Assembly: GCA_964347725.1 (NCBI GenBank)
Contig: CAYGAB010000001.1
Span: 1-27,402, forward strand
Origin: an uncultured Candidatus Peribacteria bacterium
Lineage (GTDB): Bacteria > Patescibacteriota > Gracilibacteria > UBA1369 > 2-02-FULL-48-14
Length of the DNA: 27,402 nucleotides
Direction: 5' to 3'
The notes beneath the pieces were generated by a model. It saw only the letters and a list, made by a program, of their open reading frames with translations. It was not told the origin of the DNA and did no database searches. Position 1 is the first letter of the stretch, and each line of letters starts with the position of its first letter. The translations under genes were made by a program, and so were the position numbers. Shown one piece after another: positions 626 to 7,903 of this stretch.

Positions 626-1129
626 ATGACTTTGCACGTACAAACTGGCACCACCAATGAGATTTTACGCACGGCCTCCAAGCCCGTGTCCAATTTCACC
701 AGCGAACTCAAAAGTTTTGCCTTGGACATGATCAAAACCATGGAAGCTGAAAACGGTGTTGGACTGGCAGCTCCTCAGGTTGGGCGCAACATTCGAATGG
801 TCATTTGCAAACTCAATCCTGGTGAAGACAATGAAGTGATCATTCCCATGCTCAACCCAGTCGTCATGCAAGCCTCCCCAGATCAAGAAGAAGGAGAAGA
901 AGGCTGTCTCAGCCTGCCAGGAACCTGGGGCCAAGTCCTCCGCTCAACCGAGATCGTATTGCGCTACAAAAACCTCAAAGGCCAAGACCAAACTCTGGTT
1001 CTCAACCACATCAACGCGCGGATCATCCAGCACGAAATCGACCATCTGGACGGCATTTTATTCGTGGACCGAGCCACGCAAATTGAAGAGAAAAAGGGGC
1101 GCAAGAAAAAAGACGGCGTGCAGATTTAA
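626..1129 (+). CDS. def: Peptide deformylase
   Basis: All three PDF motifs: GVGLAAPQVG, EGCLS, QHEIDHLDG. Confidence 0.97.
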   Translation: MTLHVQTGTTNEILRTASKPVSNFTSELKSFALDMIKTMEAENGVGLAAPQVGRNIRMVICKLNPGEDNEVIIPMLNPVVMQASPDQEEGEEGCLSLPGTWGQVLRSTEIVLRYKNLKGQDQTLVLNHINARIIQHEIDHLDGILFVDRATQIEEKKGRKKKDGVQI

Positions 1130-2124
1130 AACAGTTTAGCCGTTTTGTACACTCCCCACCAAAAAGGCCGAATCACCATCACTTGAGCGCCGTGGTAGTG
1201 AACTCGTTCGCCGCCAAAGCGAGTTTTGAATTGGGTCACGCCAGCCAGGCTGTGTTTTGCTGCGCCTTCAGGAGCAATTCCCAAAAAGTCGTAGTGGGAG
1301 AACCCTTCTTGTTTGGCCGTCTGAATGGCAAACCACTGCAAGGCGTAAGGGGCCATTTGGTCTCGATGGTGATTGCTGGAAGCGCCAAAATAATAAGTTG
1401 CGGTGGCCCCAAAATGTGTGGCCAAAAGTCCGCCAATGGGTTCGTGAGTGGCCGTGTAGGCCATGTAGAGCTTGGCTTGATCGCCGAGTTTATCAAAGAA
1501 ATCGATGTAAAAGTCTTTGTCGTGGACATGAAACCCGTCTCTTTCCCCGGTTTCTTTCAAGAGATCGTAAAAATCAGGAATGCCGTGAGCACCAGAAAGC
1601 CGCACGTAGACGCCCTTTTTCTCAGCTTGCCGAATGTTGTAACGGCCTTTTTGAGTCATTTGGCCCAAGAGAAATTCCTCGCTGTGGTGCAGCTTCAGCA
1701 TCAAGGTGTCTTGTGGCAAATAGGATTCGGAGGAAGTTTTTTCGTCAAGACACCAAAACTCTTCTGATGCCACGCCAGGTTCCATTCGGATGAAAACGTC
1801 GCCGTGGGATTTCGCCAAATTCTTTAGGCCATGCTTTAAAAGAGTCCAGGCAGCTTTTTGCGCCTCCTCATTTTCAGGCAATAAGGGGCCTCGTGGGCAC
1901 CAAAGCCAGGTTTTTTTGAGCCCCATGATTTGGCGTATCACCAAACTGGAAGCAATCCATTGTCCTTCTTCTTCCACCGCCAAAACATGAAAAGCAGGGC
2001 GGCCAGGGATTCCCGTTTGAAGCAATCCCCAGTCCCAAGATTGTTCTATTGAACCATGCGGATGATTTGCGACAAAGTGCTTGAGCGCCTCGCGGTCGTC
2101 AGAGGTGAGGTGGATCAGTTTCAT
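1126..2124 (-). CDS. FemABX-family peptidoglycan interpeptide-bridge aminoacyltransferase
   Basis: HGSIEQSWDWG, WCPRGP, KGRYNIRQAEKKG, ATYYFGAS, YDFLGI and FKTRFGG are FemAB/FemX signatures. Confidence 0.9.
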   Translation of the reverse strand: MKLIHLTSDDREALKHFVANHPHGSIEQSWDWGLLQTGIPGRPAFHVLAVEEEGQWIASSLVIRQIMGLKKTWLWCPRGPLLPENEEAQKAAWTLLKHGLKNLAKSHGDVFIRMEPGVASEEFWCLDEKTSSESYLPQDTLMLKLHHSEEFLLGQMTQKGRYNIRQAEKKGVYVRLSGAHGIPDFYDLLKETGERDGFHVHDKDFYIDFFDKLGDQAKLYMAYTATHEPIGGLLATHFGATATYYFGASSNHHRDQMAPYALQWFAIQTAKQEGFSHYDFLGIAPEGAAKHSLAGVTQFKTRFGGERVHYHGAQVMVIRPFWWGVYKTAKLF

Positions 2125-2140
2125 ACGCAGGCCAGTCTAT

Positions 2141-3475
2141 CTACTTACCCATGCGTTGTCGAATGAAGGCAGGAATGTCGTATTCACTGGTGGTTTCATC
2201 CAAAGTGGGGCGCTGAGGCGTCCCGGAAGAAGGGCGAGCAGCCACATCAGGCATGCTGTTTGGGCGTGCTGCGGGCGGAAGATTTGGACTCGCTGGAATA
2301 TTCCCCCCCAAAGCATTTTGAGATACGAGAGGCCGTTGAGGAGCCGGAGCCGTTGGAACAGACGCGGGGCGGAATTCACCCAGCGTTCGTGCCACATTGA
2401 TGCTGCGACGGTGGTCGTCAAACCCAGTGGCCACCACGGTAACTTTGATTTCACCCGTGTAAGAGTCGTTGATGACGGCACCAAAAATGATGTTCGCTTC
2501 TGGGTCGGCGGCTTCTGTAATGATCCGAGCGGCTTCGTCCACTTCAAACATGGAGAGGTCGCTTCCACCCGTGATGTTGAAGAGAATCCCCTTGGCTCCT
2601 TGAATGCTGAGTTCGAGAAGAGGGCTTTCCACAGCGGCACGAGCGGCTTCGCTGGCACGTTGTTCGCCGGTTCCGTACCCGATTCCCATGAGAGCGGATC
2701 CAGAATTTTCCATGATGGCTTTCACATCGGCAAAATCCACGTTGATCATTCCGTGAACGGTGATCAAGTCGGAAATGCCTTGCACTCCTTGACGGAGCAC
2801 ATCGTCCACAACGGTGAAGGCTTCTTGAAGCGGCGTTTTTCGGTCGATGAGAGAAAGAATCTTGTCGTTTGGAATCACAATCAAGGTGTCCACCTTGTTC
2901 TTCATGTTTTCTAGGCCTTCGTCGGCCTGAGTCTTGCGTCGGTGTCCTTCAAAAGAGAAAGGTTTCGTCACCACGCCAACCGTCAAAATCCCCATTTCTT
3001 TGGCAATTTCAGCGATCACAGGTGAAGCGCCCGTTCCCGTTCCTCCCCCAAGTCCACAAGTAATGAAAAGCATGTCGGACCCTTCCAAAGCGGCTTTGAT
3101 TTCTTCGCGGGATTCTTCGGCAGCTTGGCGGCCCACATCTGGGTGGCTTCCAGCTCCCAGTCCACGAGTGGTGGATTTTCCGATGTTGATCTTCACGGTG
3201 GCCTCATTGTGGTAGAGAGCCTGAGCGTCTGTGTTCACGGCGATGAATTCGATTCCTTTGATGTTGGAACGGATCATTCGGTTCAGAGCATTCCCTCCGC
3301 CCCCTCCAACCCCAACCACTTTGATGCGTGCCACAGGAGCCACGTCAGGAGTCACTTCATAAGTGCGTTTTTTGCTCGACGCACTAGCAGGACTTCCAGA
3401 GAAAAGGTGTTTTAAGCTGTCGTCGTTGTTTTGTCCACCTTGAGCCGCAGCTCCGGCGGTGTTGTCGCTGGCCAT
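2141..3475 (-). CDS. ftsZ: Cell division protein FtsZ
   Basis: [20 protein letters not shown] tubulin signature, INVDFADV, C-terminal DIPAFIR peptide. Confidence 0.99.
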
Positions 3476-3487
3476 ACAATAAAGGGG

Positions 3488-4735
3488 TTAAGGGAGAAGG
3501 CTACGGAACCAAGATTTGATTCCTTGAACCATTTTTGGAAAATCAATGGATTTCAGGTCGAGCTTGAGCCCCAGTGGCGTCTCACCCTGAAAACGAGAAC
3601 CCCAGATCGCAAGCCCTATCGCGGTGGCGTAGGCGGGGTCTTCAATTTTATCCACCACGCCTTCGTAATTGGTTGGAAAACCAATCTGAACGGGCAGATT
3701 GAGCACTTCACGAGACAAGTCGATCACGCCAGGCATTTTAACGGCGGCCCCAGTCAGGATGGCTCCAGCAGGAAGCATTCCGTCACGTTGAACCTTGGTG
3801 AGTTCGTCTTTTGCCATCAAGAAAATTTCGTGATAACGAGCCTGGATGATTTCAGCGAGCTGTTTTTTGGAAACGGTCTGGGTGTCGATTTTGGAGAGTA
3901 GAGAAAGGTCAATGGTTTCACGGTCGTGCACGTCTTCTGGCAAACAAGTTCCGTACTCAATTTTAATTTTTTCAGCCGTGTCGATGGAGGTTCTCAGTCC
4001 AATCGCAATGTCATTGGTCACGTTGTCTCCGCCAACGGGCAAAGCGGCTGTGTGCAAAACCGTTCCTTCTTCAAAAATAGTCACATTCGTTCCTCCGCAG
4101 CCCACGTCGATCACCACCACTCCCAATTCTTTTTGACGCTTGGTGAGCACGGCTTCGGCGGAAGCCAATCCAGCCGGAATGATGTCATTGATGTCCACGC
4201 CAGATTGATGCACACATTTCTCAATGTTTTTAACCGCAGGAACCAGTCCTGTCACCAGATGAGCCAACACTTCCAAACGAATCCCAGTCATGCCCACGGG
4301 GTACTTGATGCCGGTTTGTTCGTCCACAGTGAAGTACTTTGGGATGATTCGTAAAATGCGACGATTGTTCGGGATGGCAACGGCCTGAGCCGCTTCCAAC
4401 ACGCGGTCCACGTCGTCTTCAATGATTTCATTTCCGCTGTGAGAAATAGCGATCACGCCTTTGCTGTCTTGAGAAGAAATATGGTCACCGCCCAGCCCCA
4501 CAAAAACATGGTGAATTGGCTCTCCGGCCATGCGTTCGGCATCTTCAAGAGCAGAAGAAATGTTGTTCACGGTTTCTTCCACATCAATGACGCTTCCTTT
4601 TCGCAGTCCTCCTGATGGAGCCACCCCCACTCCGATGACATTCGGCACATGACTGTTTTCTTCCAACACGGCCACCACCACACGGATTTTTGAGTTTCCC
4701 ATGTCGAGTCCGGCGACGATCCTTGCTTTGGCCAT
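3488..4735 (-). CDS. ftsA: Cell division protein FtsA
   Basis: GLDMGNSK, GLRKGSVID, VIDVGCGGT, LPVGGDNVTNDIA, LTGAAV, C-terminal amphipathic helix; directly upstream of ftsZ. Confidence 0.97.
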   Translation of the reverse strand: MAKARIVAGLDMGNSKIRVVVAVLEENSHVPNVIGVGVAPSGGLRKGSVIDVEETVNNISSALEDAERMAGEPIHHVFVGLGGDHISSQDSKGVIAISHSGNEIIEDDVDRVLEAAQAVAIPNNRRILRIIPKYFTVDEQTGIKYPVGMTGIRLEVLAHLVTGLVPAVKNIEKCVHQSGVDINDIIPAGLASAEAVLTKRQKELGVVVIDVGCGGTNVTIFEEGTVLHTAALPVGGDNVTNDIAIGLRTSIDTAEKIKIEYGTCLPEDVHDRETIDLSLLSKIDTQTVSKKQLAEIIQARYHEIFLMAKDELTKVQRDGMLPAGAILTGAAVKMPGVIDLSREVLNLPVQIGFPTNYEGVVDKIEDPAYATAIGLAIWGSRFQGETPLGLKLDLKSIDFPKMVQGIKSWFRSLLP

Positions 4736-4938: not shown

Positions 4939-5859
4939 TCAAAAAAGGCTACCCTGAAGTTCTTCGGCGCGGCGTTTTTTCCACTCTTCATTGAGTTTTT
5001 CAACCCTCACCCAATGGCTTCTAAAAGCCAATTCATTGAAGATTTCCCTGAGAGCTTCCATCTTGAAGTCGTGCACCTTGCAGGCCTCGAGGTCAAAGTT
5101 GAAGTCGTCCTTTTTTAGAATGGTGGCCACTTCTCGGCACAAAAAAGCCTGGTCACGAAAAGCGGCCAGTTTCTCCCCCACTTTTGAAGGAATTGCGGCT
5201 AAGTTTTCGTAAACTCCTTCCAGATTTCCGTAGTTTTCAAGCAGGCTGATGGCGGTTTTCGGCCCAATGCCAGGCACGCCAACAATGTTGTCGCTGTTGT
5301 CTCCACAGAGTCCTTTGTAGTCTGGAACTTGTTCGGGCCAAACGCCCATGATTTCTTTCACCATGGCGCGGTCGTAACGCCGAACCTCCGAATAACCTTT
5401 TAAAGGAGCCACCACTCGAGTTTGTTCGGTGACCAACTGGAGCGCGTCTTTGTCGCTGGTGACAATCAAAGTTTGGATTTCTGGGTGTTTGGCTTCAATT
5501 TCTGCGGAGACAATTCCCAAGTAGTCATCGGCCTCCAAACCTGTTTTTTTGAACATGGGCACAGAAAAAGCTTCCAAAACCTGATAAACACGAGGAAATT
5601 GCTGGATCAGCTCGTCGTCTGTTTTGGCTCGGGTGCCTTTGTAGGTGCTGAGCATTTCGTCTCTAAACGTAGGCCCCTTCATGTCCCAGGCAGTGGCCAG
5701 GTAGAGGGGACGTTCTTTTTCCAAAATTCCCAGCAAAATGGACACAAAGCCATGCACCGCATTGGTCAGTTCTCCGCTCGCCGTTCGCAAGGTTTTTGGG
5801 AGCGCATGATAAGACCGATGGATGAGCGCGTTGCCGTCAATGATTACAAAAGTGGACAT
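4939..5859 (-). CDS. Stand-alone 5'-3' exonuclease / flap endonuclease (Pol I N-terminal domain only)
   Basis: IIDGNALIHR, YKGTR, EADD, TSDKDALQL, GDNSDNIVGVPGIGPKTA. Stops at 306 aa with no polymerase domain and ends in QGSLF. Confidence 0.93.
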   Translation of the reverse strand: MSTFVIIDGNALIHRSYHALPKTLRTASGELTNAVHGFVSILLGILEKERPLYLATAWDMKGPTFRDEMLSTYKGTRAKTDDELIQQFPRVYQVLEAFSVPMFKKTGLEADDYLGIVSAEIEAKHPEIQTLIVTSDKDALQLVTEQTRVVAPLKGYSEVRRYDRAMVKEIMGVWPEQVPDYKGLCGDNSDNIVGVPGIGPKTAISLLENYGNLEGVYENLAAIPSKVGEKLAAFRDQAFLCREVATILKKDDFNFDLEACKVHDFKMEALREIFNELAFRSHWVRVEKLNEEWKKRRAEELQGSLF

Positions 5860-5995: not shown

Positions 5996-6487
5996 ATGCA
6001 AAAATCAAAACCCAAAGCAAAGGCCAAGCTCGACGAAAGAATCCCAAGTTTAGTGGTGGACGTTCGTGGTGCTGATCCAAAGTTGCTTGAAGCTTTGATT
6101 CCTGCTCTTCAGGAAATGGTGGCCCACACTCAGGTTTTGGGAGGTCTAAAAATCAAGGCCAAAGGCTTGAGCAACGCTTTCTCAACGGAAGAAGCCATGG
6201 AGGAAGCGCATTTGTGGCTGATTTTGGGGGACAAACTCCCCTCGGACTTCTTGATGTTGGTGGAAAGGGGCATTGTTCCTGTGATGAGGTCTGGCCTGCA
6301 CGAAGAAGCCGAAAGCTACAGTCCTGTTTTAGAAAGCGGGAATTCTTTTTTGTTTGATAAGCTCAATGAATGGCACGTTCATGCGGCCATGATTCGCGCT
6401 CTGGAAAATTACAAGTTCCCCTACGACTGGCAAAACCTGAAAAACAACGTCAAAAATTTCACAAAACAGACGGTTCGCCTCAAATGA
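5996..6487 (+). CDS. Protein resembling only the C-terminal subdomain of glycogen synthase (GT5), catalytic motif degenerate
   Basis: VERGIVPVMRSG...SYSPVLESGNSFLFD...AMIRALENY...DWQNL parallels the GlgA pattern AMRYGTVPIVR..GG...YDP..GNGFLF...AIRRAL..Y...W..L. No KTGGL N-domain and no EPCGL. Confidence 0.55.
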   Translation: MQKSKPKAKAKLDERIPSLVVDVRGADPKLLEALIPALQEMVAHTQVLGGLKIKAKGLSNAFSTEEAMEEAHLWLILGDKLPSDFLMLVERGIVPVMRSGLHEEAESYSPVLESGNSFLFDKLNEWHVHAAMIRALENYKFPYDWQNLKNNVKNFTKQTVRLK

Positions 6488-6501: not shown

Positions 6502-6909
6502 TTAGTCCAAAGAACTTCCGCCGTTGAAGTTGCTGCCACCGCCAGCGTTTTCTTGAACTGTGGAGGTTAGGCTTTCAATGAGTCTGAAAATTTCACTCAA
6601 ATTGATGTACTGGACCACGTTCAGTCCGAGTGCTCTTCCCACAAAACCGACAATCACCACGGACAGAATGGTGACGATCAAGCCAATGATGGCGTAACGA
6701 ATGGTGGAAACGGCCTGTTTGATTTTGTCGTCCTCCCCCCCAGACAAGATGAAAGAAATACCGCCAAAAAATATAAAAACAACGCTCAAAAACCCCGCAA
6801 TGATGATCGCATAAGCAATCGCACGGTTGATCACTTCCATGGCGTTGTAGCTTTGGGCCACGTCCAAAACCGAACCCTGGGTGACCGCAATGAGGAGTGG
6901 ATGAATCAT
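6502..6909 (-). CDS. Small two-TM pilin-like protein of the Patescibacteria TrbC/VirB2-like (T4SS_pilin) type
   Basis: Hydrophobic helix, then FGGISFILSGGEDDKIKQAVSTIRYAIIGLIV, then a second hydrophobic helix: the characteristic GG..I.SGG...K...A...I.YAIIGL pattern. Confidence 0.8.
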   Translation of the reverse strand: MIHPLLIAVTQGSVLDVAQSYNAMEVINRAIAYAIIIAGFLSVVFIFFGGISFILSGGEDDKIKQAVSTIRYAIIGLIVTILSVVIVGFVGRALGLNVVQYINLSEIFRLIESLTSTVQENAGGGSNFNGGSSLD

Positions 6910-6921
6910 ACAAAAAGCACT

Positions 6922-7200
6922 CTACACCACCGTGCCATCCGGTTCAATGATTTTCAGATTGTAGCGAGCGTCGTGTTTCGCCCCCATCATGCGGAGCAGA
7001 ACGCGCAAAGCCTTGGCGGTTTGCCCGCTTTTTCCAATGATCTTTCCCATGTCGGCCTTGCCAACCCTCAAAGTGATGAGCACGCCAAGGTCATCCACGG
7101 TTTGCGTGACTTCAACTTCTTCAGGAGTGCCAGTGATGCTGCGAACAACAAACTCAATAAAATCCCGAGCAGGACTGTTGGTGGGGTCAACGTGAACCAT
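6922..7200 (-). CDS. khpA: KH-domain RNA-binding protein KhpA
   Basis: DMGKIIGKSGQTAKALR (GxxG KH loop); conserved position downstream of rpsP. Confidence 0.92.
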   Translation of the reverse strand: MVHVDPTNSPARDFIEFVVRSITGTPEEVEVTQTVDDLGVLITLRVGKADMGKIIGKSGQTAKALRVLLRMMGAKHDARYNLKIIEPDGTVV

Positions 7201-7218: not shown

Positions 7219-7533
7219 TTAAGCGGTCGGAGCTTCCTCGGCAAGAGGGTTTTTGGTGGCGCGTTTTTTGTTTCGGAAATCCATGAATTTTTCCATTCCA
7301 GCAACGCCATTGTACTTCAAAAGTCCAGCAACGGTATCGCTGGGCTGAGCTCCTTGAGCAATCCAATGGTCAATTCGATCTTGCTTGAAATCCGTTTTTT
7401 TACCTTCTCCTGGATTGTAAGATCCCACGATTTCAAGGAATTTACCCTGAACAGGGCGACTTTTCTCGGCCACAACAATACGGTAGGTGGCTTGATTTCT
7501 GCGTCCAGTACGGCTCAAACGAATGACTAACAA
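7219..7533 (-). CDS. rpsP: 30S ribosomal protein S16 (TTG start)
   Basis: LVIRLSRTGRRNQATYRIVVAE, GKFLEIVGSYNP, WIAQGAQPSDTV. Homology begins at TTG 7533, not at the 7611 start in the ORF track. Confidence 0.95.
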   Translation of the reverse strand: MLVIRLSRTGRRNQATYRIVVAEKSRPVQGKFLEIVGSYNPGEGKKTDFKQDRIDHWIAQGAQPSDTVAGLLKYNGVAGMEKFMDFRNKKRATKNPLAEEAPTA

Positions 7534-7567
7534 GGTGCTGAGGGTTAAATGTAATCTTTGCCTAAGG

Positions 7568-7595
7568 ATTGTAAGGATGAAAGCGGCATTGTCAA
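7568..7595 (-). promoter_or_regulatory. Near-consensus sigma70 promoter for rpsP-khpA-pilin (TTGACA-16-TACAAT)
   Basis: Plus-strand TGTCAA at 7590-7595 and ATTGTA at 7568-7573, 34 nt above the rpsP start. Confidence 0.8.
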
Positions 7596-7903
7596 GCGGA
7601 AGTTTCCACAACGGTGCGTAAATCCTTCACCCATTCATGTTTCAAACTGAGGTTCATCTTCATGATGATGTCGTGCCGATGGACGTAAACGTACTGAGCC
7701 CAAGCGCTGTGGTGCACGGCCACCACCAAGGTTCCACTTTTGAAATATTTGGGCTCCACGTGTTCGCTGATTTTTTTGCCCATGATTTCTGGCGCAAGGT
7801 CCCGAAAGCGTTTGCAAACCAGGGCCGCTCGAGTTTCACGAGTCATGTTGTAGCGCTCAATGGCTCGAGGCAAAAGTTTGGTGAAATCCCAAAAATCGTT
7901 CAT
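7592..7903 (-). CDS. DUF721 / DciA-family protein (replicative helicase loader-like)
   Basis: 103 aa with GTLVVAVHHSAWAQ...RHDII.K.N, the DUF721 core; ATGA overlap with the GT4 stop. Confidence 0.75.
   Translation of the reverse strand: MNDFWDFTKLLPRAIERYNMTRETRAALVCKRFRDLAPEIMGKKISEHVEPKYFKSGTLVVAVHHSAWAQYVYVHRHDIIMKMNLSLKHEWVKDLRTVVETSA

Follow-up and report, generated by a model that had tools for sequence, protein, structure and literature searches.

The window analysed here is a stretch of 27,402 nucleotides from an uncultured Candidatus Peribacteria bacterium (contig CAYGAB010000001.1, assembly GCA_964347725.1), and the relatives of this genome that have names are Candidatus Peribacteria/Peregrinibacteria (Patescibacteria). 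On its minus strand, at 4939..5859, the window carries a gene for a stand-alone 5'-3' exonuclease / flap endonuclease (FEN) of the DNA polymerase I (Pol I) type. This gene probably encodes the sole flap endonuclease / 5'-3' exonuclease of the cell. The protein would be what remains of Pol I after the loss of its proofreading and polymerase domains, with a short tail that ends in QGSLF, a pentapeptide that would bind the beta sliding clamp, DnaN.

A flap nuclease ending in QGSLF

The gene runs from an ATG at 5859-5857 to a TGA at 4941-4939, and its translation gives a product of 306 residues with the C-terminus ...KKRRAEELQGSLF. Pfam and the invariant columns of a 60-sequence alignment identify two domains. 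The N-terminal PIN/resolvase-like nuclease domain (5347..5850, minus strand) comprises residues 4-171, matches PF02739 (5_3_exonuc_N; 2.7e-48, 164 bits against a cut-off of 34.3), and bears D8, D59, E109, D111, D112, D136 and D138. The helix-three-turn-helix (H3TH) or SAM-fold DNA-binding domain (5062..5343, minus strand) comprises residues 173-266, matches PF01367 (3e-31, 108 bits against a cut-off of 40), and bears D187 and D190 in the sequence GDNSDN, as well as the motif GVPGIG. A weak HHH_5 match lies in this region, and no other Pfam domain was found in the protein besides the 5' nuclease pair. The full set of nine carboxylates known from the Pol I 5' nuclease is present, and both metal sites are therefore complete in this respect. 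In the alignment, D8 shows a conservation of at least 90%, and the other eight carboxylates do not vary. We take them to be equivalent to the E. coli and Taq residues on the basis of the known motifs. From the domains and the catalytic residues, the protein is predicted to have flap endonuclease / 5' exonuclease activity.

The model of the protein from AlphaFold2 (AF2) has a predicted local distance difference test score (pLDDT) of 94.3 and a predicted template modelling score of 0.91. Past LxFxS, with which the Pol I nuclease domain ends, the chain continues into a helical tail or spacer (residues 280-301, 4957..5022, minus strand; ...SHWVRVEKLNEEWKKRRAEEL). AF2 places residues 280-305 in one helix, which contains the basic stretch KKRR, and the pLDDT drops to 84 along it and then to 67 at the end. 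The last five residues, QGSLF (residues 302-306), are encoded by the codons CAG GGT AGC CTT TTT at positions 4956-4942 (4942..4956, minus strand), directly before the TGA, and form the candidate beta-clamp-binding motif. The sequence-only reading of this DNA had described a Pol I-type 5' nuclease with DGN, EADD, SDKD and GDNSD and no polymerase domain, followed by a basic helical tail and the C-terminus EELQGSLF. Pfam, the alignment, the AF2 model and the sequence itself confirm this description in all details.

The known bacterial beta-clamp-binding motif is Q-L-[S/D]-L-F. QGSLF fits this pattern at Q1, at the hydrophobic L/M of position 4 and at the F/L of position 5. Among the 1370 open reading frames (ORFs) of at least 100 residues in the genome, two end in Qxx[LM]F, against an expectation of 0.37, and both encode replication nucleases. 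The QGSLF ending of the FEN is thus more than chance. The second ORF (contig C145:720-1328, locus L063, plus strand, outside the window) encodes a DnaQ-type DEDD exonuclease of 203 residues (PF00929, 5.5e-38), which also ends in QGSLF. In the family, all 24 of its complete orthologs end in Q-x-S-[L/M]-F, and the protein, whose C-terminal tag is canonical, is a candidate for a proofreader tethered to the clamp.

The FEN ending is conserved among orthologs and homologs. An ortholog of the gene is present in 41 of 41 genomes of the order, and the terminal Q-x-x-[L/M]-F is found in 27 of the 28 orthologs whose ends could be read; the exception ends in QWISLF. Database homologs at 43-100% identity end in a sequence of the Q-x-[S/T/A]-[L/M]-F type in 118 of 120 cases. 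Among these 118, the Q, the L/M and the F are each found in 118 and the S/T/A in 111, while G, A, V, S, W, E and others occur at the free position 2, and the residues ahead of the motif vary across the 120 homologs. A fixed Q and F, a free second position, S/T/A at the third and L/M at the fourth match the known conservation pattern of Q-L-[S/D]-L-F. At the level of the class, a FEN match was obtained in 61 of 61 genomes, and the 46 C-termini that were read comprise 33 strict and 6 loose motifs; the bearers include lineages that use genetic code 25 (TGA = glycine). Qxx[LFM][FLI] closes the chain, or is followed by a single further residue at most, in 18 of 20 solo FENs of other Patescibacteria families. 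The tails ahead of the motif measure 8-47 residues and are unrelated in sequence, and they reach approximately 120-160 residues in split pieces that combine FEN and exonuclease. A tail that varies in length and sequence with an end that is kept is the behaviour of a short linear motif. The sequence-only reading had proposed to test whether orthologs share the terminal QxxLF, and the outcome is in its favour in the order, among the homologs and in the class. A Pol I-derived flap nuclease with a putative sliding-clamp tag, in a lineage without a Pol I polymerase, is a real and conserved feature.

The single helix of residues 280-305, modelled with fair confidence, and the fair conservation of the whole tail within the family (RVExLNKxW... 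in the 60-sequence alignment) could also mean that the terminal residues cap or pack the last helix on the nuclease core and are conserved for folding. This can hardly be the explanation. Across the class and the phylum, the tails range from 8 to approximately 160 residues and are unrelated, yet the last five residues stay constant; the same pentapeptide ends an unrelated protein of the DnaQ fold; and it recurs in disordered-looking, low-complexity linkers of fused Pol I.

Another reading has Q-x-S-L-F docking on a partner other than DnaN, such as SSB (the protein that binds single-stranded DNA), DnaE/tau or a protease adaptor, or serving as a degradation tag, so that the likeness to a clamp motif would be coincidental. 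Hydrophobic C-terminal peptides do act in bacteria as degrons and as docking signals of the SSB-tail kind, and the acidic EEL before QGSLF recalls such acidic-hydrophobic tails. We nevertheless find this reading improbable, as the clamp motif is matched exactly in which positions are conserved and which vary, and the only other such ending in the genome belongs to a DnaQ-type proofreader, a kind of protein that binds beta in E. coli. The internal copies of the motif in the linkers of fused Pol I also oppose a C-terminal degron, since they do not lie at the end of a chain. The variable tails speak against this reading too.

Fused, split and truncated forms of Pol I

We compared the FEN with profile models of the known nuclease families. 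The models of full-length Pol I (TIGR00593 and NF004397) match it only at model positions 2-294 of approximately 890, and the scores of 281.7 and 298.8 bits lie far below the cut-offs of 600 and 720. The model of the stand-alone 5'-3' exonuclease PRK14976 (NF011547) is matched over its full length (1-285) and is a near miss, with 257.7 bits against a cut-off of 305; the architecture of the two proteins is identical and their lineage is different. Xni / ExoIX (NF007017) scores 141.4 bits against 261, and archaeal FEN1 (TIGR03674, fen_arch) scores 20.6 bits against 351.95, in the H3TH region only. Among solved structures, M. smegmatis Pol1 comes first by sequence, with its FEN domain (6vde, 2.6e-53); Taq (3e-37), Xni (3zd8, 3e-30) and mycobacterial FenA (6c33, 3e-24) follow. 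M. smegmatis Pol1 is far closer than Xni and FenA, and the protein is therefore a Pol I-type nuclease and not a paralog of FenA or Xni.

In the phylum sample, the FEN domain is found in 298 of 301 genomes, mostly within a Pol I of approximately 900-950 residues, and PF00476, the family A polymerase domain, in 251 of 301. In the full-length Pol I proteins listed below by locus, Qxx[LM]F lies 6-30 residues past the FEN domain, in the stretch that links it with the 3'-5' exonuclease domain. The pentapeptide is present in this linker in two of nine fused Pol I proteins of the phylum sample. Among the best matches in a library of 1.8 billion proteins clustered at 50%, the linker motif occurs in 27 of 84, compared with 1.2% of control windows. 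It lies within 45 residues after the FEN domain in 6 of 24 fused Pol I proteins from other Patescibacteria classes and in 9 of 17 from Chloroflexota (Anaerolineae, Caldilineae and Chloroflexia). None of the Dehalococcoidia Pol I proteins among these 17 has it, and in Bacillota and Actinomycetota the count is 0 of 25. These data suggest a contact between Pol I and the clamp in Patescibacteria and Chloroflexota, which would be new to the literature.

The individual Pol I proteins with a linker motif are at loci L132, L137, L138, L152, L107, L097, L078, L106 and L142 in Chloroflexota and at L080, L100, L105, L119, L121, L064 and L065 in Patescibacteria. In L132 and L137, both from Anaerolineae, the linker motif reads QLSLF. 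In Coriobacteriia, Pol I (L084, L087 and L088) has Q[E/A/V]SLF approximately 50 residues past the FEN domain, where one would expect the 3'-5' exonuclease domain to have its ExoI motif; this arrangement recalls the motif of actinobacterial PolA2.

Intermediate forms were also found. In split Pol I, the FEN piece ends in the motif (genomes G072, G274, G045 and others). In 9 of 61 genomes of the class, the polymerase domain has a gene of its own, of approximately 420-500 residues. Two genomes, G352 (L236:1-2634) and G339 (L237:1-2631), have Pol I split into two adjoining genes. The first gene, encoding FEN plus an exonuclease-like part, ends in ...DQMSIF* and ...QLSLFS*, respectively, and the polymerase piece begins one codon later. 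In the code-25 family f155, the two Pol I pieces lie 80-240 kb apart. Class members of 440-465 residues were considered as a polymerase-less form made of FEN and a shortened exonuclease. A class-wide search with PF00476 rejected this, since those lineages keep a separate polymerase-domain gene and thus have a split Pol I. The same search rejected the idea that the whole class is devoid of family A polymerase: PF00476 is missing in 52 of 61 genomes of the class and is found in 0 of 41 in the order to which our genome belongs.

On a tree of FEN domains, the solo forms are nested among the Pol I domains of Patescibacteria, with weak deep nodes. Parsimony gives nine changes for the origins of the solo form, and the well-supported branches force one. 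In Patescibacteria, the strict motif is found in 73 of 101 free nucleases and in 6 of 24 fused linkers; both figures are sums of category counts, raw and uncorrected for relatedness. The Fisher test (p ~1e-6) was made with 6 of 28 for the fused forms, four split FEN-exonuclease pieces having been counted as fused.

The motif is also in the linker of many fused Pol I proteins and was therefore not invented by the free nuclease. The linker motif, together with the stop right behind the motif in the split genes, makes the solo FEN a Pol I remnant with a putative clamp tag. In our reading, the tag would belong to the nuclease module: it would already have been present in fused ancestors and would have been kept through fission and the loss of the polymerase. 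Evolution would then have started from some fused Pol I with a linker motif, passed through a split in which the N-terminal piece ends in the motif, and ended with the loss of the polymerase piece.

Replication genes and a possible clamp-based route

The genome assembly measures 1.09 Mb in 198 contigs and is 88.75% complete. The FEN gene is its single PF02739 match. PF00476 was not found in this genome nor in 40 relatives of the order; several of these 41 genomes are closed, and 34 have a completeness of 90% or more. When seven full-length Pol I sequences of Patescibacteria and Chloroflexota were run against the genome by tblastn, the FEN gene was the sole match. The genome thus holds neither a full-length polA nor a Klenow-type gene, and the free FEN replaces the fused Pol I in this lineage. 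The sequence-only reading had allowed for a free nuclease acting instead of, or alongside, a fused Pol I; the first alternative stands for this lineage and the second falls.

DnaN and DnaE are present in this genome and in four relatives, three of them closed. In the same five genomes, PolB was not found, and PolY was found in one, the more distant G025. RNase HI, RNase HII and the NAD-dependent ligase LigA are also present. The four relatives have a short family X polymerase (PolX) of approximately 320 residues (611 in G025), which lacks a clamp-like ending; in this 88.75%-complete genome, a search with PF14791 did not find one. PF14791 was the effective probe, and PF14792 was insensitive, barely matching even the controls. 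The PolX loci are L155:305-1267, L156:329-1291, L157:323-1339 (minus strand) and L158:394-2226 (minus strand). These proteins are Pol beta-like and have no PHP domain, and the G025 version has extra domains. In view of these short PolX proteins, DnaE cannot be called the sole DNA polymerase without reservation.

DnaN (L034:1480-2601, plus strand) consists of 374 residues, has all three beta domains and can be aligned over its whole length with B. subtilis beta (4e-44). Its conserved segments ATDSYRL, FPEY and IMPL align with the cleft-forming segments of B. subtilis beta and, on the E. coli structure, line the peptide cleft, as expected of an intact binding site. DnaE has an internal QTDIF at residue 930, which matches the position of the internal clamp motif QADMF in E. 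coli alpha (PMC13254535).

With these parts, we propose the following route. DnaE would complete an Okazaki fragment, and the DnaN ring would remain at the nick, beside the RNA primer of the older fragment. The last five residues of the FEN tail would enter the hydrophobic cleft of one DnaN protomer. The tethered FEN, placed at the 5' end, would remove the RNA that is left, out of reach of RNase HI/HII, after these have trimmed the primer, either as a 5' exonuclease or as a flap cutter. The few missing nucleotides would be filled by DnaE on the other protomer or, in the relatives, by the small family X polymerase, and LigA would seal the nick. This cleft would also be open to the DnaQ-type exonuclease, which has the same tag and would either compete with the FEN for it or take turns with it there. 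Both the DnaN binding of the motif and the succession of steps at the clamp are our inference.

More broadly, and tentatively, since we hold this at slightly less than an even chance, the flap-nuclease module of Pol I in Patescibacteria (and Anaerolineae) may itself be a client of the clamp. The QxxLF tag right after the FEN domain would be ancestral in this part of the tree and would stay with the nuclease through fission and polymerase loss. In whole orders, DnaE would then be left as the sole replicative and gap-filling polymerase, with a clamp-tethered FEN and a DnaQ-type proofreader sharing the ring.

Several observations weigh against the clamp-tethered route. AF2 draws the terminus as a continuous helix (pLDDT 67 at the end) and not as a floppy peptide. 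Some solo FENs are without the motif (G135/L125, G179, L151 and L153), and the tag is therefore not obligatory. The orthologs are phylogenetically related, so that the counts given above overstate independence. RNase HI and RNase HII could carry much of the primer removal. The relatives hold a short PolX, and the gap filler therefore need not be DnaE. Finally, at 88.75% completeness the absence calls for this genome alone are soft, and the closed relatives bear the argument.

The FEN could also bind the clamp and yet be mainly a nuclease of repair or recombination, acting on long-patch repair intermediates, R-loops or stalled forks, with the Okazaki primers handled by RNase HI/HII and the exonuclease-free action of DnaE. 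The presence of both RNase H enzymes would allow this, the Pol beta-like PolX of the relatives is a typical repair polymerase, and the FEN gene adjoins ftsA-ftsZ and not replication genes. We consider such a division of labour unlikely. It is established biochemistry that RNase H enzymes are unable to take the last ribonucleotide at an RNA-DNA junction, and this FEN is the single FEN-family 5' nuclease of the genome. Moreover, a 5' nuclease function is kept in 99.8% of bacteria among more than 3000 genomes, even where Pol I is missing (PMC12926913).

A femAB-family gene, ftsZ and ftsA (1126-4735), encoded on the minus strand like the FEN gene, lie immediately downstream of it. On the other side, a divergent ORF of 163 residues without a Pfam match (5996-6487, plus strand) is followed by a gene for a membrane protein of 135 residues that resembles pilins of type IV secretion systems (6502-6909, minus strand; PF18895, 3.3e-8). 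khpA (6922-7200) and rpsP (7219-7611) adjoin this pilin-like gene, upstream of the FEN gene. No functional link to the FEN is evident in this neighbourhood.

Known systems and significance

The arrangement is similar to that of eukaryotic and archaeal FEN1, which binds PCNA by a C-terminal PIP box (for example, archaeal PCNA1-PCNA2-FEN1, PMC1636371): a free flap endonuclease of the 5'-nuclease superfamily has, after a spacer, a terminal or near-terminal peptide for docking on the clamp, putative in the present protein. FEN1 acts beside a polymerase on a shared ring in Okazaki fragment maturation, and the same would apply in the route proposed here. Unlike FEN1, the protein belongs to the Pol I-type branch, its clamp would be the dimeric DnaN and not the trimeric PCNA, and its motif is QxSLF and not QxxLxxFF. 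The likeness to FEN1 is one of functional convergence and not of family membership.

Within bacteria, Pol I has been lost and a solo Exo5-3 kept in Tenericutes and Verrucomicrobia (2026 survey, PMC12926913). The protein described here is like those solo forms and PRK14976 in having the same domain pair with both metal sites complete and in the missing Pol I. The survey contains no genomes of the candidate phyla radiation and reports no clamp motif on solo FENs. It describes QSSLF in the vestigial exonuclease domain of actinobacterial PolA2, named there as the first QxxLF of an A-family polymerase. According to a 2026 preprint (bioRxiv 10.64898/2026.09.19.751633), M. tuberculosis Pol I has QLSLLDD in its Klenow part and E. 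coli Pol I has no such motif. As in PolA2 and M. tuberculosis Pol I, we find a Pol I relative with a peptide of the Q-x-S-L-F type, by which it would reach DnaN. In those two proteins, the motif is in the exonuclease or Klenow part and serves the polymerase, whereas here it follows directly after the FEN domain and remains on the nuclease part in split and truncated genes.

FenA (B. subtilis; M. smegmatis, 6c33) and E. coli ExoIX/Xni (3zd8) are likewise stand-alone 5' nucleases of the same superfamily, and B. subtilis FenA (YpcP/ExoR) is the main primer-maturation nuclease in that organism (PMC10191290, PMC13220808). FenA and Xni differ in that they coexist with Pol I, Xni is without one metal site, and both are more distant from this FEN than Pol I is. 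We found no report of a clamp motif on FenA or Xni in the literature, and reviews of replication in B. subtilis and E. coli mention FenA without one. A full-text literature search, with subscription journals outside its coverage, likewise gave no report of a clamp motif on any bacterial FEN. The DnaQ-type exonuclease also has a known counterpart, as the epsilon subunit (DnaQ) of E. coli Pol III has the clamp motif QTSMAF (PMC3664792). Epsilon is a replication nuclease on the second cleft of the clamp, beside the polymerase, and a tag of this kind is found here on the FEN and the DnaQ-like protein. The motif of epsilon is internal and weak, whereas both nucleases here carry a canonical pentapeptide at the extreme C-terminus. 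Solo FENs and clients of DnaN were thus known separately; a clamp-type motif behind the FEN domain, found in the linkers of fused Pol I as well, appears to be new.

In the textbook scheme of bacterial Okazaki fragment maturation, Pol I locates the nick unaided, and roughly 4% of bacteria are without Pol I. A conserved clamp tag on the surviving nuclease offers a testable answer for these bacteria: the replicase clamp that is left over would mark the nick and recruit the nuclease. Bacteria would then have their own way to what FEN1 and PCNA achieve in eukaryotes and archaea, and the finding suggests that the trimming of lagging-strand primers takes place on the clamp. Clamp-binding antibiotics target the tag and the DnaN cleft, and the finding therefore bears on the action of such compounds in these organisms. 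It would also widen the list of DnaN clients, and it predicts a contact between Pol I and the clamp in Anaerolineae and many lineages of the candidate phyla radiation. The series from fused to split to truncated forms lends itself to the study of how genome reduction dismantles a multidomain enzyme. If the broader reading given above is true, these bacteria would have a counterpart of the PCNA tool-belt for Okazaki fragment maturation.

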